In this document: piece after piece, positions 172 to 62,228 of the stretch
Layout: each line of letters opens with the position of its first letter
How positions within the stretch are numbered: the first letter of the stretch is position 1
IMG/VR virus record: IMGVR_UViG_3300034157_000063
From: a virus
Taxonomy: Duplodnaviria; Heunggongvirae; Uroviricota; Caudoviricetes
Reading direction: 5' to 3' (one strand)
Length of the DNA: 64,000 nucleotides
The notes under the pieces: generated by a model
Seen by the model: only the letters and a program-made list of their open reading frames with translations
Told to the model about the DNA's origin: nothing
The model's database searches: none
Translations under genes and position numbers: made by a program

Positions 172-963
172 ATGAATGACGTTATATTGAAAAAAGACGT
201 GATTATTGATCAGCACTTTGGTGAACTTATTTTTATTGAATACGAAAATAAAATCATCAATAGTCTTGTGTTCGATTATTTTGGTGAGTCTGTATCAATT
301 GATTATTTTAGTCAATCTATCTTAGAACATAATATTTTAGATGTGAAAGGGTTTATTCGTTGTGATAACATCCGTATCCCCTTTAAATTTTGTGGCGATA
401 TGACAAGTAATAAAGGTCATTCAATGGATATTTCTTTGTATTATGATGTGGTTTATTCTCGTGACAAAGATTTTAAAGATGATAATTATTACAATATCAA
501 TACACCGATTAAAAATGTTTTACGTGAACAGGTTGAAGATTACACTCAAAAATTAATTGCTTGTTTACCCAGTAAACATTCAAAAGATTTTACTGACGTG
601 CTCTCTTTTCTATATTTTTATCCCCACATAGACAAAAAAAATGGAAAGACGTTAAAAGTTTTTATTGATATGAATAGAAAAAGTATTATTTATTTCATTA
701 ATCATTATCAAAGTACATCCACTAGATTTAATTCTAATTTATCATTTTTTTACGATGGTGAAACCTTTTCACTTAATTCATCAAATTTTACCAGTGTTGA
801 TGTTAGTGATGTGACGATTGAAGATTGTTGGAAACATTTGATTACTCGTCACTTTAGATATTCAAATATTTATAGCTTTATCAACAGCAGTTATACATCC
901 CTTAATGAGCTTATGGCTCATATAGATGAAGCTTTTTTAGTTTTTGAAATGGATAATATTTAG
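172..963 (+). CDS. Hypothetical protein with C-terminal MxxI motif (LVFEMDNI)
   Basis: ORF track 157..963; ATG 172 follows a GAGGA SD; TGATATAAT extended -10 upstream. Confidence 0.75.
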   Translation: MNDVILKKDVIIDQHFGELIFIEYENKIINSLVFDYFGESVSIDYFSQSILEHNILDVKGFIRCDNIRIPFKFCGDMTSNKGHSMDISLYYDVVYSRDKDFKDDNYYNINTPIKNVLREQVEDYTQKLIACLPSKHSKDFTDVLSFLYFYPHIDKKNGKTLKVFIDMNRKSIIYFINHYQSTSTRFNSNLSFFYDGETFSLNSSNFTSVDVSDVTIEDCWKHLITRHFRYSNIYSFINSSYTSLNELMAHIDEAFLVFEMDNI

Positions 964-1021
964 TTGAATTTTGGTATTATAATGTGGTATAATAGGTCAA
1001 ATGAAAAAAAGGAGTTACACC

Positions 1022-1672
1022 ATGAAAACTATTCAATATGTTGTGAATAAAGAAAAAGCTAAGGTTGCCTCATTTGATGTTGACCCTCAAAAAAGCTTCA
1101 CTCCACTGTTTCCAGATGAATTGCCGGTAGCAGGCGGTCACCTGATTGCTGCTGCACTTAACGCACAAGCTGAACTGGCTGGTTTTCGTGTAGGTTCAAA
1201 AGATATTCATGCTACCAATGCTTATTGGGTAGCCGATGAAAAGAACCCCCAATTCAGCCCAGTGGCTCCACAGTTTCTTGATATGGATATTCACTGGAAA
1301 GCTCACTGTATTCTTGGCACAGAAGGTGTTGAGTTCTTGGATGAACTCCCAAAGGCCGATAAGTATGATTTTATGGTCTATAAAGGTATTGAGCGACATA
1401 TGCACCCTTATGGTGCTTGCTATCATGACCTCGGCAACAAAAAAACTACGGGTGTGATTGAAGTTCTTCGTGCTAATGGCATTGAACTTGTTCTGGTAGG
1501 TGGTCTTGCGACTGACTATTGTGTTAAGAACACCGCAATCCAGTTAAAACTCGCCGGTTTTGATGTGGTGGTTAACTTGTCAGCCTGTCGTCATATTGCT
1601 GATGAAACCTTGGATATTGCTATCAAAGAAATGATTGAGCATGGTATTGTGGTTGCTGATACTGTCGCTTAA
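1022..1672 (+). CDS. pncA: Nicotinamidase/pyrazinamidase (isochorismatase family)
   Basis: Motifs DVDPQKSF, KDIH, HWKAHC, VYKG and GGLATDYCV (cis-peptide/catalytic Cys); GGAG SD before ATG 1022. Confidence 0.9.
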   Translation: MKTIQYVVNKEKAKVASFDVDPQKSFTPLFPDELPVAGGHLIAAALNAQAELAGFRVGSKDIHATNAYWVADEKNPQFSPVAPQFLDMDIHWKAHCILGTEGVEFLDELPKADKYDFMVYKGIERHMHPYGACYHDLGNKKTTGVIEVLRANGIELVLVGGLATDYCVKNTAIQLKLAGFDVVVNLSACRHIADETLDIAIKEMIEHGIVVADTVA

Positions 1673-1691
1673 TCGGTTTATCCAGTAAATG

Positions 1692-1720
1692 AAGCCATGA
1701 CTTTTGTTGTGGCTTTTTTT
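1692..1720 (+). terminator. Intrinsic terminator after pncA
   Basis: AAGCCATGAC-TTTT-GTTGTGGCTT followed by a T tract. Confidence 0.75.
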
Positions 1721-1774
1721 GTTTACAGCATTAAGGTGTTGTGCTATAATTGTTCAAATTTTAGGAGAGATAAC

Positions 1775-2620
1775 ATGAATACGATTGATTTTGTGCAACA
1801 AGGAAATAAGCGTAAGAAAGCCTTTGTTGTAGATACCTTTGCTCGTAAAGTGCTTAATGACATTTTTCCTGTTATCAACGATCTTTCTAATAATGATATT
1901 CATGTTATCAATTATGTTGTTTTTCGTGGTAAACGTCTCATTGATGTTATTGTTCGTTATAAAGATCTTTGCTTGCCTATGGCTCTTGATTTCTCCATTG
2001 ACAGTGATTTAGATTGCACATACATTAAAGGCTACAGGGCTATTTATAAGTTTAATATTTCTATTGTTAATGACCGATTCCAAAGTATTCTGTTTGATGA
2101 CAATCGTGAAGATAACTTCAACGTTGAAACACTTAAAGAATTTTTAGGGGATGACGCGGAACGTTTTAGCATTCTGTATGACAGTTATTACAATAAATAT
2201 AACTCACCCATGCAGTATAAGCAGCATGTATTGAAAGCCACCGCTCCTGATGCTAAACCAACATCTGATATTTCTTTTGATTGTGAGTTTCAATACATGA
2301 GCGATACATCAGGATTCTTTTTTAATATTTATAGCAATGGTATTGAATATAAGAAGAATGTAGCGAGAGTGGAAGAACTGTGTTATCAATTGAAACCAAT
2401 GGAAGGCACTATCTCGGGTAAGTTCACCAGTATTGATTTTTGGTCAACTATTAAAGAAAACCCTTCTATGATTTCTGAACCTTTTAGGGTTGCCATTCAG
2501 AAACATTACAATGTGGATGATTATGTTATTCCTCATTTTGATTCTCATATTGAATTGTTTGATTTTTACAATGAAGAAAAAATACGAATTAAGGAAATCA
2601 GTGAAATGATAAAAATTTAA
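1775..2620 (+). CDS. Hypothetical protein with C-terminal MxxI motif (EISEMIKI)
   Basis: ORF 1697..2620; AGGAG SD before ATG 1775; TGCTATAAT upstream. Confidence 0.75.
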   Translation: MNTIDFVQQGNKRKKAFVVDTFARKVLNDIFPVINDLSNNDIHVINYVVFRGKRLIDVIVRYKDLCLPMALDFSIDSDLDCTYIKGYRAIYKFNISIVNDRFQSILFDDNREDNFNVETLKEFLGDDAERFSILYDSYYNKYNSPMQYKQHVLKATAPDAKPTSDISFDCEFQYMSDTSGFFFNIYSNGIEYKKNVARVEELCYQLKPMEGTISGKFTSIDFWSTIKENPSMISEPFRVAIQKHYNVDDYVIPHFDSHIELFDFYNEEKIRIKEISEMIKI

Positions 2621-2643
2621 AACTATTAATCAGGAGTTTAATC

Positions 2644-3447
2644 ATGCGTCGTAGTCATTTTAAACATTTCTTTGAAACCTATTTCAATTATCCTTATGAA
2701 AAACTTGAATTATGGGACGCTGATTGCGTGCGTAAAGAAATTGCTACTTCGTATGAGTGTACGCTGGATGAAGTCGATTGTTTCTTTCTTTTTAGTAACC
2801 CATTGACTTACCGCTATAAAGAAATACAGCACTATGGATTTTATAGGATAAAAAATTCAGATTTTTACGTTCCTTTTTTTGCTCATTGCTCGCCATCATT
2901 GGTTACGGCTCATGTTGAAATGAAATTTAATTATGACATTAACAATTCTGTATTTGATTTTCGTCACGTTCCTCTTAAAAAAGAGAGAACACGGGAATTT
3001 TATGAATTGACTATGGAGAATATTCAACCATTTATAAGAAATATTCTCAGCAGATCTGGTTTGTTGGTACTGGATGAACAGTTTAAGAAAAGTTCTATTT
3101 ACTTTGATTTTGATTTTTCTTATTTTACGTTGGAAGTGGCTCATAGAGGTCATAATTTCAATGAATCCTTTGCGATTACTTATAAAAACAATCTAGATAA
3201 CGATGTGACTGATGCTTTTTTTCATTGTCGTTATTATCTTCGATATTGCCTCAACAAAAAAGTAGAAAATCTTCAGGTTAGTAGCAGTAATATTAACTTG
3301 AATAATTTATTGTTCAATAAAGATGAAATGTTGCATCAATCTTTCAGTGGTATGAATGATTTTGGTTGTTTTGAGTATACGACCATTGATGAGTTGGATA
3401 CGCTTGTCAAAGAATATAGAAAGGTAGAAAAGATGTATATTATTTAA
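2644..3447 (+). CDS. Hypothetical protein, paralog of 3460..4275 (ends KVEKMYII)
   Basis: Shares HFK.YFE.YFNY, FNY.INNSVFD and YTTIDELD.LVK.YR.VEKMY.I with the next ORF. Confidence 0.8.
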   Translation: MRRSHFKHFFETYFNYPYEKLELWDADCVRKEIATSYECTLDEVDCFFLFSNPLTYRYKEIQHYGFYRIKNSDFYVPFFAHCSPSLVTAHVEMKFNYDINNSVFDFRHVPLKKERTREFYELTMENIQPFIRNILSRSGLLVLDEQFKKSSIYFDFDFSYFTLEVAHRGHNFNESFAITYKNNLDNDVTDAFFHCRYYLRYCLNKKVENLQVSSSNINLNNLLFNKDEMLHQSFSGMNDFGCFEYTTIDELDTLVKEYRKVEKMYII

Positions 3448-3459
3448 GTGGAGTCAATA

Positions 3460-4275
3460 ATGGAAAGTTTACATTTTAAATCTTACTTTGAACAATATTT
3501 TAACTACAATTATGATAAATTGAAATTTTATCAATCGGATCGTGTTCATGAGATTATCGCAAAATCTTACAATTGTTCGATGTCGGATGTAGAGTGTGTA
3601 TTCGTCCATCAGAAAATATTACCACAAATTCAAACTGATCTGGAATATCAAGACGAAGAAGAACAAACTTATGAGTTCTATGAAAGTCAGCTTTATGGTT
3701 TCTATCGAGTTCATCAATCTGATTTCTATATTCCTTTCTTTTCCTACTTGAATGACAAATATGTGTTACCACGTATTGAGTTAGTCTTTAATTATCAGAT
3801 TAACAATTCTGTGTTCGATTGTTTTCATTTACCACTTAAAAAAGAAAAAACACCTGAGTTTTATAAGTCTATTATTGCTAACTTAAATCCAATGGTTACC
3901 AAGGCTATCCAAACATCTGGCATTATGGTTTTAAATGAACCGCTTAGAAAAAGTAGTATTCATATTGATTTATATCTATCTCAGGTCGATTTAGCCAATA
4001 AAGGTACTCAATTTAAAGAAACGTTATCTTTTTGTTTTGGTGCTTCGTATGACGATATGTTGTTTTTCCATTATGACCTTAGATATTGTATCAATAATCA
4101 AATGGAACACCTTTTTGTTAGAGCCAACAATATGGCTGATTTTAATAAAGAAACGTTTCTTCGACATTCTTTTAAGTGTATAGACATTTTTTGTGATTTT
4201 AACTACACCACGATTGATGAACTTGATGTTCTGGTTAAGAAATATCGTCAAGTCGAAAAAATGTACACTATTTAG
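3460..4275 (+). CDS. Hypothetical protein, paralog of 2644..3447 (ends QVEKMYTI)
   Basis: ORF 3448..4275; GGAG SD before ATG 3460; clear tandem paralogy. Confidence 0.8.
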   Translation: MESLHFKSYFEQYFNYNYDKLKFYQSDRVHEIIAKSYNCSMSDVECVFVHQKILPQIQTDLEYQDEEEQTYEFYESQLYGFYRVHQSDFYIPFFSYLNDKYVLPRIELVFNYQINNSVFDCFHLPLKKEKTPEFYKSIIANLNPMVTKAIQTSGIMVLNEPLRKSSIHIDLYLSQVDLANKGTQFKETLSFCFGASYDDMLFFHYDLRYCINNQMEHLFVRANNMADFNKETFLRHSFKCIDIFCDFNYTTIDELDVLVKKYRQVEKMYTI

Positions 4276-4334
4276 TTGATTTTTTGGTGTGATTTTGCTA
4301 TTATAGCAGGGTCTTAACCAAAAGGAGAAACATC

Positions 4335-5229: not shown

Positions 5230-6477
5230 TCAAGAATTTTTCATTTGTTCTAATTTTACATGTTGATACGTTAATTCATACGGCTCGATATCTGATGATT
5301 TTGCTAGTGTATTACATATATGCTCACACAGTTTTTTATAAATGGCTGCAAAATCATCATGCTTATAACTAAAATCATAAGTGTGTAGTTCTGTGTCTCT
5401 CCCTATACTAATGTTAAAATCTTTGCAAGCAAAATTAAAGATGAAATTGCTAGTATAGGCACTTTCTTTTGAGATCATTCTTTTTGGATCTTTATAAATT
5501 GTCAGTAATATTTCATTAACATAAGGATTTTTTAATTGATGATGAAAATCAAATAATGCTATGATAGACAATAAATAGGATAAATTCTTATCTTGAAAGA
5601 CAGGTGTTAACAATTTTCTTAAGGTTTTAATATTTTTTGTATACAGATAAAGAGTCACTTGGTCATCTGTGGATATTCTATCAATAATTTTGGCTACACT
5701 TTTATTTCTTTCTGGATTGTGTTTCAATATCACTACCTCATGACCATTACTGAGTTCTGATTCAGGTTCCATATTGCAATGAACGTAATCTTTTATCATG
5801 ATGGTCTTATAACGTATATGCGTATTTTTGATATTGATAAAAAAATCATAATCAGTATAATCTTTGAAAAAGGCGGTTTGATTTATTCTTTTATTGTAGG
5901 CATCAACACTTTCAGTCAACACTTTATTTATTAATTCAACATTTACATCTTTTATTGTTTTCTTAAAATAATTGGATAACGACATTTTTAATTGTTTGAT
6001 AATTATTTTTTGAAAATCTGTTACATTCATTTTTTCTGCCATTGAAACTTTTAACGAATGGTTTTTCTTGAAAAATGCTGATTCTTGTTGAATATTATAA
6101 TGAGATTTTGTTATCATTATGTCAATAATCTTACTGCTGAATGTAATGGTTGTGTCCGTACTCATGATATAGATCAGATCATGATCAGGTAGAGCATCAT
6201 TGAACAATTGATAATGAAAATTAAACATTGATACTATTTGTTTGAGTTCATTTTTGCTTAATTGTGGAAGAAAGAAGGATAGACACGTCTCTATACTGGA
6301 CGTGGTATAGTATTCCATGATGTTAAAACTAAGTTGATGATCCTTCATTATGAAGCTATTGATACTGTCATCAATATTATCATTATCGACTTCTACAATT
6401 CCATTGGATAGAAAGTAATCTCTTAAACAAAGCGGATTAGACATAAGTTTATCAGTATTTGAAATCGTATTTTTCAT
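5230..6477 (-). CDS. Hypothetical protein, paralog of 6493..7716, internally duplicated
   Basis: 415 aa ORF; ends HVKLEQMKNS. Confidence 0.8.
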   Translation of the reverse strand: MKNTISNTDKLMSNPLCLRDYFLSNGIVEVDNDNIDDSINSFIMKDHQLSFNIMEYYTTSSIETCLSFFLPQLSKNELKQIVSMFNFHYQLFNDALPDHDLIYIMSTDTTITFSSKIIDIMITKSHYNIQQESAFFKKNHSLKVSMAEKMNVTDFQKIIIKQLKMSLSNYFKKTIKDVNVELINKVLTESVDAYNKRINQTAFFKDYTDYDFFINIKNTHIRYKTIMIKDYVHCNMEPESELSNGHEVVILKHNPERNKSVAKIIDRISTDDQVTLYLYTKNIKTLRKLLTPVFQDKNLSYLLSIIALFDFHHQLKNPYVNEILLTIYKDPKRMISKESAYTSNFIFNFACKDFNISIGRDTELHTYDFSYKHDDFAAIYKKLCEHICNTLAKSSDIEPYELTYQHVKLEQMKNS

Positions 6478-6492: not shown

Positions 6493-7716
6493 TTATGAAT
6501 TTTTCATTTGCTGTAGTTTTACGTGTTCAAACCTTAATTCTTTTGGTTCGACATCTAACGATTTAGTGAGCCATTTTTTTAAAAGATTAACAAGACTTTT
6601 ATAAATCAAATTGAATTTGTCAGATGAATAATTGTAATCATGAAGGCTATAAGACCTTATTTCAGTTTCTCTACCAATATTCAAGCTAAAATCACCTACA
6701 CTGATGTTGAAAATGTAGTTGGTGCAAAATACATATTCTTTCGAATCAAACAGAGTCGGTTCTTTTTCAATGGATATTAACTTCTGTATAGAGTAAGGGT
6801 TTTCAATCTGTTCTATAAAATTCATCAGGGATATAATTGAGAGTAAGGAAGACAATTCTTTTTCATGAAAGATTGGCTTCAATACTGTTCTGATTACATC
6901 CATTTTATTGACATCGACAAAGAGTGATACTCTGTCTTTTAAGTTCTCTAACTCAACAATATGGGTTTCTGACTCTTGTTTAATGATCGCTATATTCTTA
7001 TTTTCTAGAAAACTAAGAGACGAATCAGACTCTTCATCTTCATAAATATAATTTTTCAAGATATAGGATAATTTAGAATCATTGATGTTTTTATAAAAGC
7101 TATGATCAGTCCATTTTTTGAAAAAAGCTTTATGATTGATGCGAACATCATAAGATTCAATAGACTCATTCACAACATTGGCAATGGTTGTATTATTTAC
7201 TTTTTTTATGTCTTCATTGAAATAGAGTGATAGCGATTTCTTTAACTGTTCAATGATGACTTTTTGAAAATCATCTACGGTTAATTTTTTTAATGAATAG
7301 GCACTTTCAAAAAATGAGCATTCCTGATATATCTCGAAAGAGTGCTTAGTCACTTGAAATTCAACCAGTTTGCTGCTAAATGTAACATGATTATTAGTGA
7401 CAACAAAATGAAACACTTCATTTTTACCCATTGGAACACAAAAAAGATTATGATGAAATTCAAACATGGAGACAACTTGATTTATTTCATTCTTAGTAAA
7501 GTGAGGCATAAAAAATGACAGTATTATTCTTATATCAACTGCAGCATAATATTCAGTCAACTGGAAGTTCAAATTGTTCTCACTGACAGAAAACGTATTA
7601 AGCTTACCTTTGATATTATTATCTTTTGATTCAACAACACCCATTTTTAAAAGGTATTCTTTCAAGAAAAGGTGATTTCCAAATAATCCCAGTATATTGG
7701 CATTTGTATTTTTCAT
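6493..7716 (-). CDS. Hypothetical protein, paralog of 5230..6477
   Basis: 407 aa ORF; ends HVKLQQMKNS. Confidence 0.8.
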   Translation of the reverse strand: MKNTNANILGLFGNHLFLKEYLLKMGVVESKDNNIKGKLNTFSVSENNLNFQLTEYYAAVDIRIILSFFMPHFTKNEINQVVSMFEFHHNLFCVPMGKNEVFHFVVTNNHVTFSSKLVEFQVTKHSFEIYQECSFFESAYSLKKLTVDDFQKVIIEQLKKSLSLYFNEDIKKVNNTTIANVVNESIESYDVRINHKAFFKKWTDHSFYKNINDSKLSYILKNYIYEDEESDSSLSFLENKNIAIIKQESETHIVELENLKDRVSLFVDVNKMDVIRTVLKPIFHEKELSSLLSIISLMNFIEQIENPYSIQKLISIEKEPTLFDSKEYVFCTNYIFNISVGDFSLNIGRETEIRSYSLHDYNYSSDKFNLIYKSLVNLLKKWLTKSLDVEPKELRFEHVKLQQMKNS

Positions 7717-9994: not shown

Positions 9995-10798
9995 ATGACA
10001 ATCATGACTATTTGCTCACTGGGTAAGGCTGAATTACAAGAAATTGCATCATCTTTTGGTGGTGGATTTACACAAGCTCGTGAGTATGCTGATAGATTTA
10101 CATCTATTCAGGACGCTAAATTTAATTTGATTAGTGTATCGAACCATAACTATGCGGCTTCGATACATCTCAACTATCCTGACGCCAAAATGGCATTGCC
10201 TATTATTGACTTTCTTAAGAAGACGTATCCATTAGATTTTTCTTATTATCAAGAAATTATTGATAAAGCTAACCCGATCTATGCAATCAATAATTTTTTT
10301 GATGAACCTTTAAAAATTCCATTTGAAGATTCTACATGGGAACAGTTTAAGCCAGCCCCAAGAAAGAGAAAACTATGTGATGACTTTTCAAGAAATATTA
10401 AAATCCGTCACACCTCGGCGGGGCAACGTGATTCTCGCATGGTGTTGAAACATAGGCTTTCAATTGCTAAAATTAAATTTTCTAATTGCACTTATGAATA
10501 TGTGCCAGTCATAAAATTTACGTTACCTATGTCCAGCATCACGAATAGAACAGTGATTGTATCAGCCAGTAAAAAACATGATTTTATGTTTTATCAACAT
10601 AGTGGTAAAATGATTTACCTTGACCGCTCAGAACATGATGTGTTTTTTGAAAAGCACAATAAATCATTGGTCACTCATATTTATAACAGTTTATCAAAAT
10701 CTATTGGAATGGATGATGTAGCCTTGAAAGACTTTAAACAATTTGATGATGAAGAAAGAGAGCGATTTGTAATGGTTTCAAACATGTTAAAAGTTTAA
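9995..10798 (+). CDS. Hypothetical protein with C-terminal MxxV motif (MVSNMLKV)
   Basis: 267 aa ORF with AAGGA SD. Confidence 0.75.
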   Translation: MTIMTICSLGKAELQEIASSFGGGFTQAREYADRFTSIQDAKFNLISVSNHNYAASIHLNYPDAKMALPIIDFLKKTYPLDFSYYQEIIDKANPIYAINNFFDEPLKIPFEDSTWEQFKPAPRKRKLCDDFSRNIKIRHTSAGQRDSRMVLKHRLSIAKIKFSNCTYEYVPVIKFTLPMSSITNRTVIVSASKKHDFMFYQHSGKMIYLDRSEHDVFFEKHNKSLVTHIYNSLSKSIGMDDVALKDFKQFDDEERERFVMVSNMLKV

Positions 10799-10889
10799 AT
10801 AATAATTATTTTTATAGTCCATTTATGCTTATCTTTTTGTTGAAAAAACAATGGGTAAATGGTATAATCTTGTAAATTACGAGGATTTG

Positions 10890-13025
10890 ATGATGCAGAC
10901 GAATGAAGCACTTATTGTAAACTTTTTCAATGATTATAGAATCAATCGACATTATGCACAGATGCCTAATGTTCCTTTTATTTTTAATGCACTTGAAAAT
11001 TTGGCATCTAACAAAGATGTTACAAAATCATTCATGTTTGGTCAAAACAAGCATCGTTCTCAATATCAATCAGACTCATCTTCTTTTTCGCTAAGTAATA
11101 TAGATGTGAATACTTTGAAGTCTTTGTCTGGTCTTGATTATGCCTTTATTCTTGAAGGTTCTGGTCAACCTTTCAAACAACAATTAGCCCGCATCACAAG
11201 AGATGAACGTTTTGATGATGATTTTTTGGATAATGAACCTTGTCATGGTAACAGTTTTTTTCATTCTAATCCAAGAAATAAACAAGATGCTTCTCAGTAT
11301 AGCAAAGAAGGTCTGGCGACCATTAAATTTGTGAGCAAATGTCGTAGTTTGTATCAACAAATGCATTCTGTTATTCAGTATATGATTGGTTATTATAGTT
11401 ATAGCCTGTCTGTGGATTACTCAACATTGTTGAAAAAATGGGAGCAGGCTGTTCCGTCACTGCATATGAGTTGTGCCAAAGAAGTTAAAGAATTGAATAA
11501 AATTATTGAATCGACTTATGAATCCAATAAATTTTTTAAAGATCGTTATGAAACGTTTGTAGACTTTGTTGTTAAATCTAGTGCTTTTGTCGATATGTTC
11601 ATGGACTTTACTGAAAATCGTCATAGCTCTGCCCCACGAGGTTTTGAAAATTCAACAGGACACAGTAACTTTTTTGGTCATCAGGGTATGCCAGTTAATC
11701 GTCCAGTCGGCCCAGTCTTGAACGAGAAATTCAAAGAACTTTTTGCTCAGCAAGAGCGTAGGTTGACTGATTTTATTGAATCCAATAAAGACATTCTGGT
11801 ATCGCGTGAAGCTCATGAATTTTTTAATCAAGACACCTTGATCGCAGACTATAAGAAAGTTTTGAAAATTTGTGAGATTTTGATTGAAAAAACTGACATT
11901 CATCTGAATTGTAAATCGTTGCAGGCGATTAGATTTTTAGACACCTATGCTTCACGTCATGAAGACATTATGAAAGCTACTGACTTTGATACTGAATTTA
12001 GAGATCTTAATATTGTAGCAGCTATTAATAATATTAAAAATTCTAGTATTACAGCAGCCATCGTATTTGATGACAAATCAGTAGCTGTTAAGAAAAAAGG
12101 CTATGAAGGCTTCCAGTATAGTCCTAGTTCTTTTATGGGCACCGAATTAGTGCTGGATGGTTACATGGATGAAGTCAATCACATGTTGCGTAAAAATCCA
12201 TCAATGAATAAATCAGTTAAGGTGTTAATGCGTAACTTGAAAACCAAACATATCAATAACCAGCCGCTTCTATTTAGCTCGCTTAAAGGTTTAAAAGTTG
12301 GTTTGAAAAGCTATTTTGATAATGAAAACATTTTGAAGGCTCATAGTTTTGACATGATTAATGAATTGAAGACTTCTCGCACCTTTGAAGAATTCGATGA
12401 CAAAATTCACAAAGTGGTGCGTAAGCATAAAATTGAGCAATATGCCATGAGTATTGTTAGTAACAAGTATAAGAATCTATACAGTGATAAAACACTCTCA
12501 ATCATGGAAGAACTCTATGATATGGGCATTAGCACTCACATTCTTCAAGATATGATTGGTAAAAAGATGGCAAGCATTAAAAACACTCGCTCTTTGAATG
12601 CTGCATTGAAGTCGTTGTTGAACAGTATTAATGGATTTGAAATTTCAAATATTAAGATGAAAGCTGCAGCCAACAATGTGAAAGTGTTGTTTGAAACAGA
12701 AGACTACTTGGTTCTTGAAATTGATACGTTCAAGCAGTCAAAAGCAATGGGTAGTCCTTCTTGGTGTATCAGCCGTGAAGACTATCACTTTACCACTTAT
12801 ACTGAGGGTGGTAATATTCAAATCTTTGCTTACGACTTTAGTCTTACTTCAAAAGACAATAAATCTATTGTGGGTATCACATTGACCAGACACATGAAGG
12901 TTCATGCCGCTCACAACAAGAACGATACTGAATTGCGGGATAAGGCAACAAAGGAAAAAGTGATTAAGATTGTAGCAGATGCCAAAGGTATTGTGCTCAA
13001 AGAACATAAGCCAAAATCTGCATAA
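10890..13025 (+). CDS. Large protein with C-terminal PcfJ-like domain
   Basis: C-terminal LVLEIDTFKQSKAMGSPSWCISR...F..Y pattern resembles PcfJ-family G...WCI motif; basic tail KEHKPKSA; GAGGA SD before ATG 10890. Confidence 0.55.
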   Translation: MMQTNEALIVNFFNDYRINRHYAQMPNVPFIFNALENLASNKDVTKSFMFGQNKHRSQYQSDSSSFSLSNIDVNTLKSLSGLDYAFILEGSGQPFKQQLARITRDERFDDDFLDNEPCHGNSFFHSNPRNKQDASQYSKEGLATIKFVSKCRSLYQQMHSVIQYMIGYYSYSLSVDYSTLLKKWEQAVPSLHMSCAKEVKELNKIIESTYESNKFFKDRYETFVDFVVKSSAFVDMFMDFTENRHSSAPRGFENSTGHSNFFGHQGMPVNRPVGPVLNEKFKELFAQQERRLTDFIESNKDILVSREAHEFFNQDTLIADYKKVLKICEILIEKTDIHLNCKSLQAIRFLDTYASRHEDIMKATDFDTEFRDLNIVAAINNIKNSSITAAIVFDDKSVAVKKKGYEGFQYSPSSFMGTELVLDGYMDEVNHMLRKNPSMNKSVKVLMRNLKTKHINNQPLLFSSLKGLKVGLKSYFDNENILKAHSFDMINELKTSRTFEEFDDKIHKVVRKHKIEQYAMSIVSNKYKNLYSDKTLSIMEELYDMGISTHILQDMIGKKMASIKNTRSLNAALKSLLNSINGFEISNIKMKAAANNVKVLFETEDYLVLEIDTFKQSKAMGSPSWCISREDYHFTTYTEGGNIQIFAYDFSLTSKDNKSIVGITLTRHMKVHAAHNKNDTELRDKATKEKVIKIVADAKGIVLKEHKPKSA

Positions 13026-31677: not shown

Positions 31678-31678
31678 T

Positions 31679-42793: not shown

Positions 42794-42853
42794 AAATAAA
42801 TTGTAAATGCTATTAAATTATTGTATAATTGGCTATATTTTGTGGAGATTCAT

Positions 42854-50037: not shown

Positions 50038-50051
50038 GTATGTTCCTATTT

Positions 50052-51944: not shown

Positions 51945-52242
51945 TTTCCTCTTAGGTTGATTTCCTACCAGCCTAACACATAAAATATTGAAATCAACAC
52001 GTTACAGCTTGCAAGCTTAGATAGTGAGTGAATATTGACGCTTGCATTTACTTTTAAATAATGAAAAATATATAACCAAAAAGAACTTGAAAATATTTTT
52101 TATGTCTTTTTTATTTACATAACGGCATAAAATTATGTTATTATTGCCTTATTCGGCCTTTTATTTTTTCTAATAATTATCAAACCGTTTGACCTTTTAT
52201 TGATTTTTTAGTATAATCATCTCAATTCTAATGGAGAACATC

Positions 52243-52686
52243 ATGACTGAGACAACTGAATTCTATAGCACTACTCTTCTTAATAGTACAGGTGACATTA
52301 CCTTGACGTGGGAAGACGGTGAAGATGCTGAAATCAAGAAAATGATTCAAGATAAAATTGATGCTGGTTATTGCTTTTTTATCCTTGAACCGCGTGTTGC
52401 GTTTCTTAAAGCTCTAGGTTCTAAAAAGAAGACTATTCGTAATATCTCTGAAATCAAAGGCCGTGAAGTTGTCATGGAAACTGATGCCATTAAAGGTGGT
52501 GCAAAAGCTATTCTGGGTGAAACGTTGAAACTGGGTGACGAAGCGTCTGAAAACCTTTTCAAAGCCGGTCGTATTGGTATTGCTAACGTTCCAGAATCAA
52601 GCTATAATACAGTCGGTAAAGCGAAGACTGCTACCGAAGTTATGAAAAACCACACGATTGCTACTCCACGTATTGTAGCCGGTTAA
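52243..52686 (+). CDS. Hypothetical protein with ubiquitin-like C-terminus (TPRIVAG)
   Basis: GGAG SD; TTGACC..TATAAT promoter; LNSTGDITLTWE near the N-terminus. Confidence 0.7.
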   Translation: MTETTEFYSTTLLNSTGDITLTWEDGEDAEIKKMIQDKIDAGYCFFILEPRVAFLKALGSKKKTIRNISEIKGREVVMETDAIKGGAKAILGETLKLGDEASENLFKAGRIGIANVPESSYNTVGKAKTATEVMKNHTIATPRIVAG

Positions 52687-52697
52687 GAGGAAGTTTT

Positions 52698-54029
52698 ATG
52701 CCCACTATTGCAAGCCCCGACATTCATTATGTTATGGATTCAGCTTTTGAACTCTTGGAGATGACTCCAGATGTTCATAATGCTTCATTTTTTGCTAACT
52801 TGAATCTTAATAACTACTTCGACATGTATGACGTTGGATATTCAACAGAAGGGGCTTGTTCATCTATGATAAACCTTTCAACCATGATGTATGAATGGAT
52901 GGCTGATCAAGATCAATTAACTCAGGGAGTATTGCTTTCAACGAATGTGTATGCCTCGAATATGCAATTCAATGAGTTTGTAGGCAGTGTGACCAATATT
53001 CTTGTTCGTAACTATTTAAACAATAATGGTATCGAAGAAAAAACAAATTCTTTCTATACTATGATGGGTCGTGAGCGTAATGTGGTCAATATTTTGAATG
53101 AATCCGATATTTTGTTCCCAGCCAATATTGCAACGGTGATTATGCAAGAAAATCGCTTGTATGAATATATGGTTAATATCAAAGACCGATTGAAGCTTTC
53201 AATGAATGTCACTGCGACTGCTGATGAGCTTAGAAAACATCATGTGGCTATGCTTACCAAGTCGATTGAAGGCACTAATATGGTTCTCACTGATGGCAAC
53301 CGTATTGTTGATCGTGATGATATTGTAACCAGAGCAGTTGAAAATGAGCGTGTTTCATCGGCAAGAAAAGCAATTAAAAAAGGGGTTAAAAAGTTTGTTA
53401 ACCTTTTTGGTAAGAAAAATATCACTAGTTTTGTGAACGGTGATGGCTTTACAGTGCAAGGTGAAAAATACAACTGGCATTTTCGTCAGAAACGTAGTGT
53501 GTCTTTAATTAATATGACCCACAGTCCATTGAAAGGACATATCCCTTATGAATTATCATTGATGAATAAAGATAATGTCGTGATGGCTGATTGCTGTGTA
53601 TTTGTGGCTGAGAATACACCTATTATTGACCAAATTATTACCATTGTTCTTCATATTCAAAACGATGAAGATCAGTTGTTGGCTCATTGTAATTTGTTTA
53701 ATGTTCGACCTACAATGGATAATGGTATTCTTTATCATAACAGACCCAAAGAAAGCAGTAGCACGTCTGCACAATCGACAGCTCTTGCGATTTCTGAATA
53801 TACCACTGAATTTAACCGTTTGAATGCATTTTACAAACAACATGTTAAGGATTGTGTGGCTGATGTGATTGGCATTGATCGTAAGTTCTTTAATTATCTG
53901 CTTGCTAACAAACGTAGTCCAATAATGGAATCCAACTCATGTCCAACCTATATCAATGCTCAGTCACCTAATCAGATCTCACAATTTTACATTGATGAAT
54001 TTAAAAACACTCAAAATCTTTTGACATAA
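52698..54029 (+). CDS. Hypothetical protein co-transcribed with the 52243 ORF (FTVQG...CCVFV..TPIIDQ...DEDQLL...N domain)
   Basis: GAGGA SD 11 nt after the previous stop. Confidence 0.7.
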   Translation: MPTIASPDIHYVMDSAFELLEMTPDVHNASFFANLNLNNYFDMYDVGYSTEGACSSMINLSTMMYEWMADQDQLTQGVLLSTNVYASNMQFNEFVGSVTNILVRNYLNNNGIEEKTNSFYTMMGRERNVVNILNESDILFPANIATVIMQENRLYEYMVNIKDRLKLSMNVTATADELRKHHVAMLTKSIEGTNMVLTDGNRIVDRDDIVTRAVENERVSSARKAIKKGVKKFVNLFGKKNITSFVNGDGFTVQGEKYNWHFRQKRSVSLINMTHSPLKGHIPYELSLMNKDNVVMADCCVFVAENTPIIDQIITIVLHIQNDEDQLLAHCNLFNVRPTMDNGILYHNRPKESSSTSAQSTALAISEYTTEFNRLNAFYKQHVKDCVADVIGIDRKFFNYLLANKRSPIMESNSCPTYINAQSPNQISQFYIDEFKNTQNLLT

Positions 54030-54096
54030 TTGATTGCACATAGATCCTCTTTTTGCTATAATACTCGCATATTATAAATGAATGAGGATTTTCACA

Positions 54097-54726
54097 ATGG
54101 TATCAAAGACTAATCAAGTTTTGAAAAATGAAGAAGTTCTTACTTTCTTGACTGCCTTATTCCCTAACATCGTTAATCTGAAAGATTTGGGTGATGGCAG
54201 CATTGAAATTGAAACTGATAAATTCTTTACCACCGCTAGCGTTATGTTTATTGATAATAAGTTTATCGTTCAAACCAACCTTCCAGAAAGTTATCGCATT
54301 GACCAAGACAGTAGTATCATTGATTATATTGATGGTTTTGGTTATTTTTATCAATTGTTCAACGTGAACCCATTTCTCTTCAAATTTGATAAAATTCGTA
54401 AAGTCATCTATGAAGAACATAGTAATATGGCAATTGTTAAATTTATGTTTGACACCTCCTTCGGTGTTTCAGCATTCCTTTCATTCTCACCTAAGAAATC
54501 TTACTTGAGTTTGAATGGTGTTGTTATCAACTTGAAGAAACAAGAAGCGATTGATGTTCATTATAACGACATCTTCTCTCGTTTTCTGGCTGAAAAGTCT
54601 GTTTCCGAACTAAAAGTGTCAGGTGTTGAAGCTCATCGTATCAATCAATTTCTTATCGAAGAAGACATTGAACCTTGTAATTTCATTGATGAACACCTTG
54701 AAATTATTAAAATGGTTGACTTTTAA
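54097..54726 (+). CDS. Hypothetical protein with C-terminal MxxF motif (EIIKMVDF)
   Basis: GAGGA SD; TGCTATAAT upstream. Confidence 0.75.
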   Translation: MVSKTNQVLKNEEVLTFLTALFPNIVNLKDLGDGSIEIETDKFFTTASVMFIDNKFIVQTNLPESYRIDQDSSIIDYIDGFGYFYQLFNVNPFLFKFDKIRKVIYEEHSNMAIVKFMFDTSFGVSAFLSFSPKKSYLSLNGVVINLKKQEAIDVHYNDIFSRFLAEKSVSELKVSGVEAHRINQFLIEEDIEPCNFIDEHLEIIKMVDF

Positions 54727-54772
54727 CTTTGTAAAAATATGGTAAAATATACCTAACAATATAAAGAAAAAC

Positions 54773-56266
54773 ATGTCTAAAATAATCATAGTTCATTCAT
54801 TATCCGAATCAAAACTCAGAAAAGCCGTTGAACTTGGTGGAATGCCTCTACCCAGCATCGCGGCTATGAAACCTGATAATGAGTTTACCCGTTTTGGTAA
54901 CATCACCTTCATTCTAAAACCAGAATCTGTTAATCCAAAAGATAAGAAAAATCTATTTTTTGATCGTGATATATTTTCTCAGAGAATTCCAGAACTCTAT
55001 TACGATATAGACAAGAAAGCTCTTAGCAGTCTTCATAAACAATTAGACACTATGGTCGATAACAATAAAAGTCTTGAACCTTTATTTAATTTGTATGATT
55101 TGGATTCATTAAAAAGAAAATCATCTGATTATATTGAAGACCGTTTGAAATCAAGTCCTCTTGTTCGTTTGATGTTTATACAAAAAATGAATCCTTCTTA
55201 TGAACTTCCTACTAAGGTTGATAAATTGCAATCTGATCTTTCATCTGATCTTATTTTTCAAGACTATATGAAAAAAAGAATACACACACTTCAACATGAT
55301 GATGACTTCAAGTCAGCCCTACATGCTGTCTTAGAAAGAAGACATGCTTACTACAAAGACACTATTGGTTTGACAATTGCTGATGATATTATGGCTGATT
55401 ATAAGAAAGCTATCTTTAATCAACATGGCGATATTAATAGTTATTCAAGTGATCTTGAAAAAATTGTGAATGATGTTAAGCGTTATTCTGGTGTCTCTAA
55501 AATATTAGATATTGAGAAGGCTAGGGATGAATTAAGCAAGTTTGCTGATAGTCATACTGCTGATTACAGTGAATTCTTTTCTGACCTTACGCAAGATATC
55601 TTTGTTAAGCCGCATTTGAGAAATGGCACCCGAAAAGTTGAATATAACTTAGATACGATTTCTAAGTATATGTTAAGACAGCAAGTAACCGGAGCAGAAG
55701 ATGTTAATGATACCAGTATTGGTAAAATATCTTCCAGTTACTCCACACAATTTACTTCTTATGATGACATGATTAGCTATGTTGATAAATTAGACACAAT
55801 GGAAGACCGTCACAATCAAACAGATGCTCTTAATAAGAGAATTTTCGATTTGGCTGAAAAAATACAGCCACACTCCCCTTATTCAAGATTTTTTGATGTT
55901 CAAGAATATTTATCTTTGGCATTAACACGAGTCTCAACTTTAGAACAGTTTTCTACAAAATTATCTAAACAAGGTTTTGATGTTACTGCTATACCACAAG
56001 ATGTCATTAATGAAGGTTTTGACATCTGTCATGGGATTAAAAATCTAAGCAGTCATTATTTTGAAGGAAAGCCACAAAAAGTTATCTATTTTGATGACTT
56101 CCAAGCGGTAGCACTACCAAAGAATACTGCACCAGACATTATCAAAGCTCTTGATGGTAAAGTGAATATCCACTTCTATGAAACACAAGAAGAAAAGAAA
56201 GCAATATTCTCAAAATACTCATTTGATTCAGCACCTAAAAAACTCAATAAGTTAAAAAACTTTTGA
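54773..56266 (+). CDS. Protein resembling a domain of large polyvalent proteins of phages/conjugative elements; basic tail
   Basis: VHSLSESKLRKAVELGGMPLPSIA...FGNI and YFEGKPQ...F.AVALP motifs (recalled pattern, not searched); ends KKLNKLKNF. Confidence 0.5.
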   Translation: MSKIIIVHSLSESKLRKAVELGGMPLPSIAAMKPDNEFTRFGNITFILKPESVNPKDKKNLFFDRDIFSQRIPELYYDIDKKALSSLHKQLDTMVDNNKSLEPLFNLYDLDSLKRKSSDYIEDRLKSSPLVRLMFIQKMNPSYELPTKVDKLQSDLSSDLIFQDYMKKRIHTLQHDDDFKSALHAVLERRHAYYKDTIGLTIADDIMADYKKAIFNQHGDINSYSSDLEKIVNDVKRYSGVSKILDIEKARDELSKFADSHTADYSEFFSDLTQDIFVKPHLRNGTRKVEYNLDTISKYMLRQQVTGAEDVNDTSIGKISSSYSTQFTSYDDMISYVDKLDTMEDRHNQTDALNKRIFDLAEKIQPHSPYSRFFDVQEYLSLALTRVSTLEQFSTKLSKQGFDVTAIPQDVINEGFDICHGIKNLSSHYFEGKPQKVIYFDDFQAVALPKNTAPDIIKALDGKVNIHFYETQEEKKAIFSKYSFDSAPKKLNKLKNF

Positions 56267-57105: not shown

Positions 57106-57181
57106 GCTTTGGTAGCTCAGCGGTAAGAGCAGCGGTCCCTAAAACCGATGGTCACGGGTTCGAATCCCGTCCTTAGCACCA
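57106..57181 (+). tRNA. Atypical tRNA with CUA anticodon (amber-suppressor-like)
   Basis: D and T arms canonical; anticodon arm CGGT-CCCTAAA-ACCG gives C33 and CUA at 34-36; acceptor GCTTTGG/CCTTAGC has two U-U mismatches; CCA. Confidence 0.75.
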
Positions 57182-58158: not shown

Positions 58159-58176
58159 TATTAAGAGGTGCATGTT

Positions 58177-58500: not shown

Positions 58501-58512
58501 CAAGTTTTATAT

Positions 58513-58588
<76 letters not shown>

Positions 58589-58609
58589 ATTTCCAACGAG
58601 GTGATAACA

Positions 58610-58837: not shown

Positions 58838-58900
58838 CAATGTTCAGTTGCTTTTTTTTCATGTTGACACATAATGACTGTATAACAGTGGTGTATAGTC

Positions 58901-59692
58901 ATGGCAACAGCAGAAATCGACATAGATTCAGAGATTAAGAATTACTTTCTCGATTATTTAGTGAGCGAACTGAATATAGACGAAATCCATTATGAACTTA
59001 TTAAACCAAAACGACGTTGTGTTTTTAGAATACGAATCAAGGGTGCTATTGAAAATTTAGTGGTTGAATATCAAGAAGACTTTATTGGTGAATATTCTGT
59101 TTACTTTAAAACAACCGCCAGCAGTGAATTTTTTGAAAGCTTTCTTAATCCTATTTTGAAAACCAAAACTATAGATTATGCCGAACGCTTTAATTTAATG
59201 TTTAATAAACTCGAACAGACTGGCACAAAATTTAAAGTCTTTAAAAAGATAACAATGGTCAGCAATTCAATTCTTTCCACTAGGATTCAATTGGATAGAC
59301 TTTCTGGTGTTGAATATAATGTCGTGAGTTCTCATCGTAATATCTCAATGGCTGTTAATGAAAACCTCTATACTCATCAAAAAAAGATTCATAATTTTAA
59401 GACAATGATATATTTCACATTCAAAAAAGGTATTTTGTCAGCGGATTGTTTAGTGTTCAACCAGTCTATGAGTAATGATAAGGTTGACGCTGTTGAATTA
59501 TGGATATCGAATAATGAAGCTGTATTTACAAAAAATTTAAGATATTTTCAAAAGCAACTTGAAGATTTTGCACTTCATGAATTATTTTATCCAATCCATA
59601 TACATTATGGCATTCCATTTAATCAAATTATTGCAATGACAGAAGAAGAATTAAAACCTTATGTTGATGTTGTTAGTATGCTAAGAATATGA
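58901..59692 (+). CDS. Hypothetical protein with C-terminal MxxI motif (DVVSMLRI)
   Basis: 263 aa ORF. Confidence 0.75.
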   Translation: MATAEIDIDSEIKNYFLDYLVSELNIDEIHYELIKPKRRCVFRIRIKGAIENLVVEYQEDFIGEYSVYFKTTASSEFFESFLNPILKTKTIDYAERFNLMFNKLEQTGTKFKVFKKITMVSNSILSTRIQLDRLSGVEYNVVSSHRNISMAVNENLYTHQKKIHNFKTMIYFTFKKGILSADCLVFNQSMSNDKVDAVELWISNNEAVFTKNLRYFQKQLEDFALHELFYPIHIHYGIPFNQIIAMTEEELKPYVDVVSMLRI

Positions 59693-59699
59693 GTGTTCT

Positions 59700-60707
59700 A
59701 TGATTAATGTATTGAAGAACCTGTTTGGCAGAAACACTTTGTCAGTCAATAACCTTATTAAAGTCAAAAAGGTTAATGATGTTCAGTTTACTGCAGAAGC
59801 TAAAAATGGACTGTTTGCTGAAATAGATATTAAAGATGGTTATATGTTTGTGACCATTAAAGATAGAGGTAGCAGTAGCACCATGAATTACTGCACGCAA
59901 AAAATAGATGAGACTGTTGATAATCATCATTATGTCCTCAATCAGTTAGCTGATAATATCTTTTTTCAATTTGATAGAAAAACATTTCCCTATCTCAGAA
60001 ATAGATATGCCGCTATTTTTACAAACCATCCAAACGTATTGAATATGTTCTTAGGTGGTGTTGAAGAAGATACAGATAAATCACCATCCATTCAGTATTT
60101 TAATGACATCTACTATCCAGAAGTGGCTATTGTAAAAAAATCAGTCATCAAGAATATCAACAAAGTCACCTTTTGTTTATTGTCATCTACTAAAAAAGCT
60201 GTAAATAGAGCACATTTCTATATCGTTAATGATCAGCTATTTGAAGTGGGGAGATTTAGTGACTTTAGTTCCATACCCTGTTTAAAAGATAAAATGAATG
60301 AATATGGCAACATGATTGACACTCGAAAGGTTCGTATTCTAAAACACAACTATAATGCCTGCCTACTGATTAAAGACGGTTTGAAGTATCGACTGGTTGT
60401 AGAAGATTTTAATGAACTTGATAATGATAATTTGAAAGACAGAAAAATGACCGATGATACCACCATTAAATTTTTTGAATTCACTTATGAGAAAGGTGTC
60501 ATTCTACAGAAATCAGTGGTGTTTAATGATGAAGCCCTTCAAAAATATCAGCAAGAGTTTTTGAGTGTGTATAGTAAACGTATAAATTATTGTCGATCTT
60601 ATTATCCATCGCTGCAGACTTATGCAACACTTGAAAAAATGGGGATGGATGACACACTTCCACTGGATGAGAATACTCTTCTTCTTCTTTCTATGTATGA
60701 AATATAA
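59700..60707 (+). CDS. Hypothetical protein with C-terminal MxxI motif (LLLSMYEI)
   Basis: 335 aa ORF. Confidence 0.75.
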   Translation: MINVLKNLFGRNTLSVNNLIKVKKVNDVQFTAEAKNGLFAEIDIKDGYMFVTIKDRGSSSTMNYCTQKIDETVDNHHYVLNQLADNIFFQFDRKTFPYLRNRYAAIFTNHPNVLNMFLGGVEEDTDKSPSIQYFNDIYYPEVAIVKKSVIKNINKVTFCLLSSTKKAVNRAHFYIVNDQLFEVGRFSDFSSIPCLKDKMNEYGNMIDTRKVRILKHNYNACLLIKDGLKYRLVVEDFNELDNDNLKDRKMTDDTTIKFFEFTYEKGVILQKSVVFNDEALQKYQQEFLSVYSKRINYCRSYYPSLQTYATLEKMGMDDTLPLDENTLLLLSMYEI

Positions 60708-60764
60708 TAACACTTTATTTTTGAAATTTACGTGTTAAACTTGATCATTCATTAGGTAATCATT

Positions 60765-61010
60765 ATGATAATATATGATAAATTAGACATTCTTCATTGT
60801 CCGCATTGTAAGCGTTCACAAGATAATTGTGTGATTGATTTTGTTCAAACAGTCTATGACCCATCAGGTATTCATCGTTTTCCAGCCAAAACACATTATA
60901 CACGACAATGTATGTTTTGTTTGAAAGTGTATTATATTAAGGCACTGCGAAATGGACAAGTAGCCATAGATATTAATGACTACGTTATTAAAGATTTTAA
61001 TTTGTATTAG
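60765..61010 (+). CDS. Small Zn-ribbon protein (CPHC...CMFC)
   Basis: Two CxxC pairs; AGGT SD. Confidence 0.65.
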   Translation: MIIYDKLDILHCPHCKRSQDNCVIDFVQTVYDPSGIHRFPAKTHYTRQCMFCLKVYYIKALRNGQVAIDINDYVIKDFNLY

Positions 61011-61440
61011 TGTTCTTTCTTTCTAAGTAGAAATCCAAATATTTCTTTGGTCTTTCTTTAAAGGCTCGTTTGTTACCAATTTTAAATGAGCTATCAAATG
61101 CTGAATAGGCTTCATCATATTGTTTTAATTCATAACACACCATTCCCAGATCCATAAAGCCACCTGTATCTATTTTAGATGTTTGACCCGCCATTGATAT
61201 TTTTATCCATTCTTTTGCTTTGTTATATTCCTGAGTATCAAAATACACCTGATATAAGCAGCCTGCTATCCAATAAGTCAGGAATGACCATTGTTTATCA
61301 TCTGGCAACTTTTCCCATCCTTCTTGATAATGATCGAGAGCAACGGTGTAAAGGTTTGATTCATGAAATACATTACCTTCTTCAACTATTTCTATAATCT
61401 CTTTTTCTAACTCTGTATTGATTTCACTCAGTTCTTTCAT
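60997..61440 (-). CDS. TPR-repeat protein
   Basis: ALDHYQEGW, YFDTQEYNKAKEW and LGMVCYELKQYDEAYSAF TPR patterns. Confidence 0.75.
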   Translation of the reverse strand: MKELSEINTELEKEIIEIVEEGNVFHESNLYTVALDHYQEGWEKLPDDKQWSFLTYWIAGCLYQVYFDTQEYNKAKEWIKISMAGQTSKIDTGGFMDLGMVCYELKQYDEAYSAFDSSFKIGNKRAFKERPKKYLDFYLERKNTNTN

Positions 61441-62228
61441 ATTTTTACCATCCTCAATAGTGTTATGTCATCTTGGTTAAATGCTGTTCTGTCATTACCA
61501 AGATGTTTTTTTATCATCGGTAAATAAATAGCTAAGAACTTATCATCCACTATTTTTTGAAACTCTTCAATATCTTTCATCATAATTAATTCGTCAGATT
61601 CTTTAAATTTGACCGCAATCATTAATTTATCATCTAGTTTCACAACGTTAACAATTACTTTTAGATTGCTGGTCATTGGATAGTTTATGATATACCACTC
61701 TAATAAACTACAGTCATCTAATATAAAATACTGTCTTTTTATATAGGTTGGTCCATGTTTACTCCATGCACCTTTACCACAGATACCTACAATGTCATAC
61801 ACCGTTTTAAAAAAAACTTCCGGTGTCACTTCGTTTCTGTTTTTTAATAGTTTCTTTATTTTCTTTTCATGAACTTTATTTTTATCTTTATTATAAATCC
61901 CATACTTCTCACCTGTTTTATTAATGATACTAATGATAGAAAACAAATCAGATTCTTTCATTTCATGAGATTTAAAATGATTGAATGTTTTAAGAAGTTC
62001 GGTTTGATCCCGACCTAAAAAATATATTTGTCTATTATTGTTGTATACTCTTAAATGCATGAAAGGATGAGCTAGACTGGCCGGAGATTTTATGTCATAA
62101 AATTCGTATTCAACAATCCCCTCACTGCCTTTTTCGACAATAGGTTCATTTGAGAAATTAGGCACATTCTTATCAAGGAACTGTAATAAGTTCTCTATAT
62201 TGAAATCTGTTTCAAAAATATTGTCCAT
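61437..62228 (-). CDS. Hypothetical protein with C-terminal MxxI motif (TLLRMVKI)
   Basis: AAGGTG SD; ATGA overlap with the TPR gene. Confidence 0.75.
   Translation of the reverse strand: MDNIFETDFNIENLLQFLDKNVPNFSNEPIVEKGSEGIVEYEFYDIKSPASLAHPFMHLRVYNNNRQIYFLGRDQTELLKTFNHFKSHEMKESDLFSIISIINKTGEKYGIYNKDKNKVHEKKIKKLLKNRNEVTPEVFFKTVYDIVGICGKGAWSKHGPTYIKRQYFILDDCSLLEWYIINYPMTSNLKVIVNVVKLDDKLMIAVKFKESDELIMMKDIEEFQKIVDDKFLAIYLPMIKKHLGNDRTAFNQDDITLLRMVKI

Follow-up and report, generated by a model that had tools for sequence, protein, structure and literature searches.

C-Terminal Signature in the Window

The sequence analyzed here is a 64,000-nucleotide stretch of viral record IMGVR_UViG_3300034157_000063 in IMG/VR; "the window" refers to this whole stretch. 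It has a guanine-cytosine (GC) content of 32%, carries 7 tRNA genes, and is dominated by orphan genes, among which lie translation-related genes for arginyl- and cysteinyl-tRNA synthetases (ArgRS and CysRS), a class II synthetase, and Thg1. Many of the orphan proteins share a signature at their extreme C-terminus, [LIV]xxMxx[IFYVM], in which Met stands at position -4 (the last residue being -1). The initial annotation of the window listed 22 such termini, and every one of them was recovered at its stop codon with Met at -4.

Among the 74 non-shadow open reading frames (ORFs) of at least 100 aa in the window, 22 have Met at -4 (background Met 2.95%; binomial p = 1.8e-16), and each of the other positions from -1 to -15 holds at most three Met. 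The hydrophobic flanks proposed for the signature are complete in 19 of the 22 carriers; the misfits are the pair ending at 5230 and 6493, with Ser as the last residue, and 26621-27493, with Thr at -7. Carrier lengths (214-415 aa) agree with the range first reported, as does the number of bodies, since an all-against-all BLAST of the 22 joins just four tandem pairs and leaves 18. It was likewise confirmed that no recognizable enzyme of the window is tagged: Thg1, ArgRS, CysRS, the class II synthetase, isochorismatase, NADAR, and PBECR5 all lack the tail. Two of the three variants proposed in the annotation are backed, 50052-50816 by its paralogy to a carrier and a score of 11 bits on the tail matrix without its Met column, and 18522-19283 by its ortholog in a 437-kb relative of the element; the third, 29400-30155, gained no further support. 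All carriers and variants are listed in Table 1.

Table 1. Carriers of the C-terminal tail and variants of it, in window coordinates. The tail comprises the last 15 codons plus the stop codon.
Feature	ORF	Strand	Tail	Observation
Carrier	157-963 (likely start 172)	+	916-963	Ortholog at 31% keeps Met -4
Carrier	1697-2620	+	2573-2620	Ortholog at 26% keeps Met -4
Carrier	2644-3447	+	3400-3447	Tandem paralog of 3448-4275
Carrier	3448-4275	+	4228-4275	Met -4
Carrier, 415 aa	5230-6477	-	5230-5277	Ser at end
Carrier	6493-7716	-	6493-6540	Paralog of 5230-6477
Carrier	9995-10798	+	10751-10798	Met -4
Carrier	13645-14310	+	14263-14310	Ortholog at 33% keeps Met -4
Variant, Ile at -4	18522-19283	+	19236-19283	Ortholog in 437-kb relative has Met -4
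Carrier	20284-21060	+	21013-21060	Ortholog has Ile at -4
Carrier	21105-21950	+	21903-21950	Met -4
Carrier	24231-25133	+	25086-25133	Extra adjoining carrier in 1.85-Mb relative
Carrier	26621-27493	+	27446-27493	Ortholog at 32% keeps Met -4
Carrier	27490-28236	+	28189-28236	Met -4
Possible variant, Met at -6	29400-30155	+	30108-30155	Weakest member
Carrier	41927-42793	+	42746-42793	Paralog of 42821-43726
Carrier	42821-43726	+	43679-43726	Met -4
Carrier	43728-44393	+	44346-44393	Paralog of 44412-45086
Carrier	44412-45086	+	45039-45086	Met -4
Carrier	49264-50037	-	49264-49311	29-residue T2SSE match (Walker B region), no Walker A
Variant, Ile at -4	50052-50816	-	50052-50099	Paralog of 49264-50037
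Carrier	54082-54726	+	54679-54726	pLDDT 89; terminal helix 197-206 of 208; in syntenic four-gene block
Carrier	58901-59692	+	59645-59692	pLDDT 88; terminal helix 248-262 of 263
Carrier	59700-60707	+	60660-60707	Orthologs keep Met -4
Carrier	61437-62228	-	61437-61484	Orthologs keep Met -4

Searches of the carriers against Pfam and PHROGs gave no shared family and essentially no domain, the T2SSE snippet in 49264-50037 being the only match above a curated cut-off. Both tagged paralogs at 49264-50816 (-) contain this short segment, which resembles the Walker B region of secretion ATPases and is not accompanied by a Walker A motif; a weak T2SSE match is also present in an untagged gene of two relatives.

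Tail Anatomy and Conservation

Tail anatomy was derived from 120 carriers, whose bodies form 96 clusters. The consensus has an acidic residue or Asn at -11, a hydrophobic residue at -9, Leu/Ile/Val at -7, Glu/Lys at -5, Met at -4, a hydrophobic residue at -3, and Ile/Tyr at -1, with information extending to -13. Position -7 is hydrophobic in 88% of these carriers and -3 in 70%, and 79% end in a hydrophobic residue. Between -22 and -11, Asp and Glu together make up 23% of residues (vs. 13% for background and 15% for non-carriers), scattered and Asp-rich, with no consecutive Glu. Plotted as a helical wheel, the tail has its most informative positions (-1, -4, -5, -7, and -11) on one half and its variable hydrophobic positions (-3, -6, -9, -10, and -13) on the other. 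Even with the Met column removed, 90% of carriers score above the 95th percentile of internal Met windows; these scores and the enrichment at -4 reject chance or composition as the source of the signature.

Codons at tail positions match genome usage and all three stop codons are found, so the constraint acts on the protein. A DNA or RNA motif was rejected on the same codon evidence, and because no flanking k-mer was significant after multiple testing. False ends produced by amber recoding are unlikely, given that TAG-ending carriers (10 of 98) keep Met at exactly -4.

Unrelated carriers resemble one another strongly over the last 15 residues and faintly as far as -45; from -100 to -46 there is no similarity, with scores equal to those of reversed controls; the forward-over-reverse excess is faint at -45 to -16 (p = 2e-8) and in the bodies (p = 0.02). 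For the window, the annotation held that all carriers are soluble and that no recognizable membrane protein is tagged. This does not hold outside the window: in the 437-kb relative, the same tail is found on six or more predicted membrane proteins, each with 2-4 hydrophobic segments. In homolog pairs with less than 40% body identity, Met -4 was kept in 11 of 17 cases, compared to 12 of 102 for Met residues in the bodies (Fisher p = 3e-7, computed on pairs with less than 70% identity). Its retention on such diverged bodies identifies the tail as a conserved terminal module. The carriers themselves diverge faster than other genes (median identity 29% vs. 40%; p = 0.008) and are without catalytic signatures (Walker A in 0 of 120, HExxH in 1 of 120).

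A second class of tails, Lys-rich and often ending in Lys-Pro-x or Lys-Ile, was observed in the window and the 437-kb relative. It comprises 29 of 328 termini, in contrast to 2.5% of internal windows (3.5-fold), and none of the 120 Met -4 carriers.

Occurrence in Relatives and Control Replicons

The 437-kb relative, whose core 443-aa gene is 50% identical to that of the window, was analyzed as a whole (500 ORFs). Met occurs at -4 in 102 of its ORFs vs. approximately 13 expected (p = 1e-58), and at -3, -5, and -6 in 8-16 each. The annotation had named a lack of enrichment at -4 as the first ground for abandoning the signature, and the enrichment is clear in both data sets. Carriers are evenly distributed along this relative (5-15 per 40 kb), and about two dozen further ORFs bear a tail of this kind in which -4 is Ile or some other residue, or in which the pattern is shifted by one residue. 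By the count in this relative, about one in five of the element's proteins is tagged; scaled to the roughly 1.9-Mb element, several hundred carriers would be expected. Other relatives hold extra or different carriers. Lineages at 29-32% GC keep Met at -4. In a lineage at 24% GC, Ile or Leu stands there in the 54082-54726 ortholog as well as in a few more ORFs, which points to a code that drifts from lineage to lineage.

Control replicons were sampled by region. Met -4 was found in 2 of 125 ORFs of the jumbo phage GAP32, 6 of 116 of the jumbo phage RaK2 (p = 0.08), and 0 of 54 of the huge phage LR756502, and the signature is also missing from two megaplasmids, a 939-kb Vibrio plasmid (0 of 143) and pMPPla107 of Pseudomonas (1 of 89); a general trait of jumbo phages or megaplasmids was thus rejected. 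pMPPla107 (NZ_CP031226), which is typed MPF_I and carries a coupling protein, has a terminal signature of its own: of 89 ORFs sampled between 250 and 570 kb, 24, with bodies from 11 clusters, end in DLGL-COOH with Asp at -10. This tag is not mentioned in the paper describing the plasmid, where the term "C-terminal" is not used (bioRxiv 10.1101/385575). Another element-specific tail was found on contig IMGVR_UViG_3300047323_000673 (26% GC; weak coupling-protein match), where most of the 28 consecutive ORFs at 1-20315 share a Leu-x-Lys-Glu-Leu helix followed by a Lys-Lys-Leu-Lys-Ile-type end.

A hidden Markov model of the Met -4 tail was too weak for database searching (best score 20 bits), a DNA pattern scan of IMG/VR gave chance matches only, and feature searches of the ESM Atlas gave no result. 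No paper naming the motif or the family's contigs was found in the literature searched, which excludes most subscription journals.

Nature of the Element

Proteins of the window are on record on a metagenomic Joint Genome Institute contig of 1,917,244 bp. Syntenic relatives comprise contigs of 1.85, 1.86, 1.54, and 1.04 Mb and fragments of 604 and 437 kb, and the family includes Ga0308158_10000001, Ga0308423_1259934, Ga0247725_1000001, and Ga0310127_000002; no close relative was found in GTDB genomes, INPHARED (cultured phages), or PLSDB plasmids, and the core 443-aa gene of the window has no tblastn match in PLSDB. Like the pMEGA megaplasmids of Enterobacteriaceae (Guitor et al., 10.1101/2025.09.30.679422), the element is megabase-sized, low in GC, and mostly hypothetical, with tRNA and translation genes. 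Because of this resemblance in size, GC, and content, we infer that it is probably a megaplasmid-like, AT-rich, orphan-rich extrachromosomal replicon. In a comparison with the core protein subfamilies of pMEGA1-20, five of six marker terms had no match in the accessible part of the pMEGA supplement, and the lone match was an unrelated Pnkp entry. The DnaK of a relative is 66-68% identical to gammaproteobacterial DnaK; the host is probably a gammaproteobacterium and the element probably conjugative. Outer-membrane genes are present besides DnaK, as are efflux and chemoreceptor genes by reading of the sequence. Replication and transfer genes were not seen in the part of the replicon examined.

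Several features of the translation genes stand out. The tRNA at 57106-57181 (+) has a CUA (amber) anticodon and is present also in two related lineages; it is suppressor-like without evident recoding, as TAG still acts as a stop in tagged ORFs. The ArgRS at 15475-17151 (-) contains just 5 Arg, all encoded by CGG, and is approximately 35% identical to the best cellular matches found. The 437-kb relative has a block of six tRNAs at 259558-260424, four for Ser (four anticodons, including AGA) and two for Tyr.

Among the other genes of the window, 37840-39384 (+) fuses a haem-oxygenase-like domain, a DUF3419 piece, and a methyltransferase domain, and is 57% conserved in a relative. Untagged orphan families at 30610-32761 (+) and 10851-13025 (+) each have at least three homologues in the 437-kb relative. 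The block at 52231-56266 (+) consists of a 151-aa protein ending in Ala-Gly, the 443-aa protein, the tagged orphan 54082-54726, and a PBECR5 nuclease; its synteny is kept in all lineages seen, down to 41% identity, and the 443-aa family has 467 distant clusters.

Predicted Folds of Two Carriers

AlphaFold models of 54082-54726 and 58901-59692, both with a high predicted local distance difference test score (pLDDT; Table 1), end in a helix that spans the tail. The order of elements is common to both: a helix, a four-strand meander, helices, a second meander, a long helix, a short helix, and the terminal helix. Given this shared order, many soluble carriers may be very old paralogs with a common ancestor. 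Fold searches with the two models gave no PDB match above Z 6.3 and no BFVD match with E < 0.001; the best Atlas match had a template modeling score of 0.41 and belonged to the TriTu immunity family. The two models drew different match lists, which shows neither a new fold nor different folds. The annotation's caution that the carriers could all be full-length homologs of one family is not borne out by sequence and retains some force from the common helix and strand order of these two soluble proteins. A single full-length family is hard to square with the data because membrane-protein carriers exist.

Possible Readers of the Tail

We think it likely that the tail is a docking tag read by one common partner. 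One reader is the best explanation because the tail is fixed relative to the stop, occurs on unrelated soluble and membrane proteins, and is kept far above the level of the bodies. The annotation's inference of a modular address tag thus stands as regards a protein-level module under its own selection, present on many unrelated orphans and across relatives; no partner or function was found to complete it. In the mechanism we propose, the last 15 or so residues would fold into a docking helix that is particular to this lineage and shared by several hundred fast-evolving proteins. The face at -3, -6, -9, -10, and -13 would pack on each protein's own body, and the constant face (Leu/Ile/Val -7, Met -4, Ile/Tyr -1 with its free carboxylate, and the acidic residue or Asn at -11) would be read by a single element-encoded partner.

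Our leading candidate for this partner, by analogy and at somewhat less than an even chance, is the coupling complex of a type IVB (Dot/Icm-like) conjugation machine. Such a complex would export the tagged proteins into recipient or neighboring cells, where a repertoire as large as that of Legionella could help the plasmid to establish itself, to counter defences, or to compete. The type IVB option, raised already in the annotation, gains indirect support by analogy with pMPPla107; no secretion gene was found in the reachable part of the element. Also in its favor are the hydrophobic residues at -3 and -4, the raised Asp and Glu content upstream, the occurrence of the tail on both soluble and membrane proteins, and the Vir/Dot/Icm proteins of the pMEGA plasmids, which are similar in size and low in GC. 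Several further points weigh against export. No member of the coupling-protein family occurs in the 437-kb fragment, and a search of the family's contigs with a Vibrio homologue found no coupling protein in the reachable sequence. The C-termini of Dot/Icm substrates share no detectable sequence homology (PMC11602083), and the tag here, with its near-fixed Met and confidently folded helix, is unlike those loose tails. The Lys-rich tail class, being exclusive of Met -4, could be the real export signal. The Vibrio 939-kb megaplasmid has a coupling protein yet no comparably sharp tag. Finally, the two modeled carriers, unrelated in sequence, share an order of secondary structure in their models, as distant paralogs would.

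More doubtful is a generalization of the export reading, in which each giant conjugative element would evolve its own C-terminal code and route 20-30% of its proteome through one machine into other bacteria. The same doubt attaches to taking the Met -4 helix here, DLGL in pMPPla107, and the Lys-Leu-Lys-Ile-type end on another AT-rich contig for such element-specific codes. If true, there would be a plasmid-encoded effector repertoire, Legionella-sized and aimed at bacteria, that is legible from the last 15 residues.

The tail could instead work inside the host cell, in the manner of eukaryotic F-box or SOCS-box tails: the helix would plug recognition proteins, hundreds of them and all variable, into a single machine encoded by the element (a protease, chaperone, scaffold, or immune effector), and the bodies would serve as sensors or adaptors that diversify against phages, competing plasmids, or host defence. 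We regard this as unlikely on balance, though it accounts for a tail that is constant and folded while the bodies evolve fast and lack catalytic signatures and, essentially, domains, for the tandem duplications of carriers, and for conservation sharper than in known secretion signals; membrane-bound carriers would also suit a cytoplasmic dock. However, no candidate machine was identified, and the existence of a differently tagged megaplasmid with a type IV coupling protein points at least equally to export.

An improbable alternative is that most carriers descend from one ancient expanded family in which the terminal helix is simply the slowest-changing element, with no external reader. The common element order of two sequence-unrelated carriers and the faint forward-over-reverse similarity upstream of the tail and in the bodies are what such a relic would leave. 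It does not explain the same tail on multi-pass membrane proteins or a position fixed relative to the stop codon, and a packing residue would not remain Met on 96 bodies without detectable sequence in common, nor be retained five times more often than other Met.

Non-polar C-termini are classic degrons of FtsH and Prc. The hydrophobic end of 79% of carriers would therefore suit a C-terminal degron read by a host or element protease (FtsH, Prc/Tsp, Lon, or Clp) that keeps the carriers short-lived, and pMEGA plasmids encode ClpP and three FtsH-like proteins (10.1101/2025.09.30.679422). We nevertheless judge a degron to have a low probability: known C-terminal degrons are short and unfolded, in contrast to a confidently modeled helix with information to -13, and no protease was identified in the sequence examined.

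The annotation's phage options, in which the tail of a giant virus would direct proteins into capsids or into a phage compartment, are weak and very improbable. In their favor, the 437-kb relative is catalogued in IMG/VR, and tRNAs, tRNA synthetases, and orphan arrays are known in jumbo phages too. Against them, that fragment has no Terminase_6N match (capsid and portal were not searched for) and no ORF longer than 778 aa, and the gene content includes DnaK, outer-membrane genes, and what read as efflux and chemoreceptor genes. Carriers that sit in membranes are ruled out as cargo of a capsid, the signature is missing from GAP32, RaK2, and LR756502, and the contigs of 1.04-1.92 Mb are, to our knowledge, larger than any described phage genome.

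Megabase plasmids consist mostly of orphan genes. A signature shared by between about a fifth and a third of these genes places hundreds of orphans in one functional class, and it implies one partner that could be fished with a 15-residue peptide. Were that partner the conjugation machine, the elements would be delivering protein cargo on a very large scale, and the tag would be a type IVB signal of unusual definition; were it an internal hub, the carriers would be a bacterial counterpart of large adaptor libraries.

Comparison with Known Systems

The combination of a variable N-terminal body with a constant C-terminal element that binds one shared machine is known from poxvirus PRANC/F-box proteins, the SOCS box, and the Xanthomonas XVIPCD. 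The carriers have the same layout. They differ in having no sequence or Pfam match to these proteins and in a tag whose length falls far below that of XVIPCD; a bacterium, moreover, would not be expected to have cullin-type machinery.

The pMEGA megaplasmids encode Vir/Dot/Icm proteins and no phage genes (10.1101/2025.09.30.679422). The likeness to the present element is one of size, GC, and content: both are megabase-sized and low in GC, with approximately 80% hypothetical genes, many tRNA and translation genes, and efflux genes, and in both about one fifth of the proteome belongs to one expanded, variable class. In pMEGA this class consists of alpha-solenoids, whereas in the present element it comprises predicted alpha/beta meanders and membrane proteins. 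The term "C-terminal" is never used in the pMEGA paper.

In Dot/Icm signals, position -3 or -4 is hydrophobic and acidic residues precede it (PMC3052360), and the substrates include soluble and membrane proteins alike (PMC11602083). The tag resembles these signals of Legionella and Coxiella (RalF type and E-block) in its extreme C-terminal site and hydrophobic -4, as well as in its hundreds of unrelated carriers, soluble and membrane-bound, among which housekeeping enzymes are not found; its upstream acidic residues, scattered and Asp-rich, may be a further likeness. All tails have the hydrophobic residue at -3 or -4 (Met -4 by definition, and -3 in 70%). In contrast to a loose compositional bias, however, Met is nearly invariant in the tag, and the helix, folded in the models, carries information at -1, -4, -7, and -11; the tag needs no run of Glu, and it sits on what is probably a mobile element.

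A parallel in organization is pMPPla107, likewise an orphan-rich replicon of approximately 1 Mb with a replicon-specific terminal signature on many unrelated proteins. It differs in the motif (Asp at -10 and an Asp-Leu-Gly-Leu end), in its larger carriers, in a GC content of 52%, and in having a demonstrated coupling protein. Set beside these systems, the Met -4 tail is a real, element-wide signature that is undescribed in the literature searched, carried by an undescribed megabase element.

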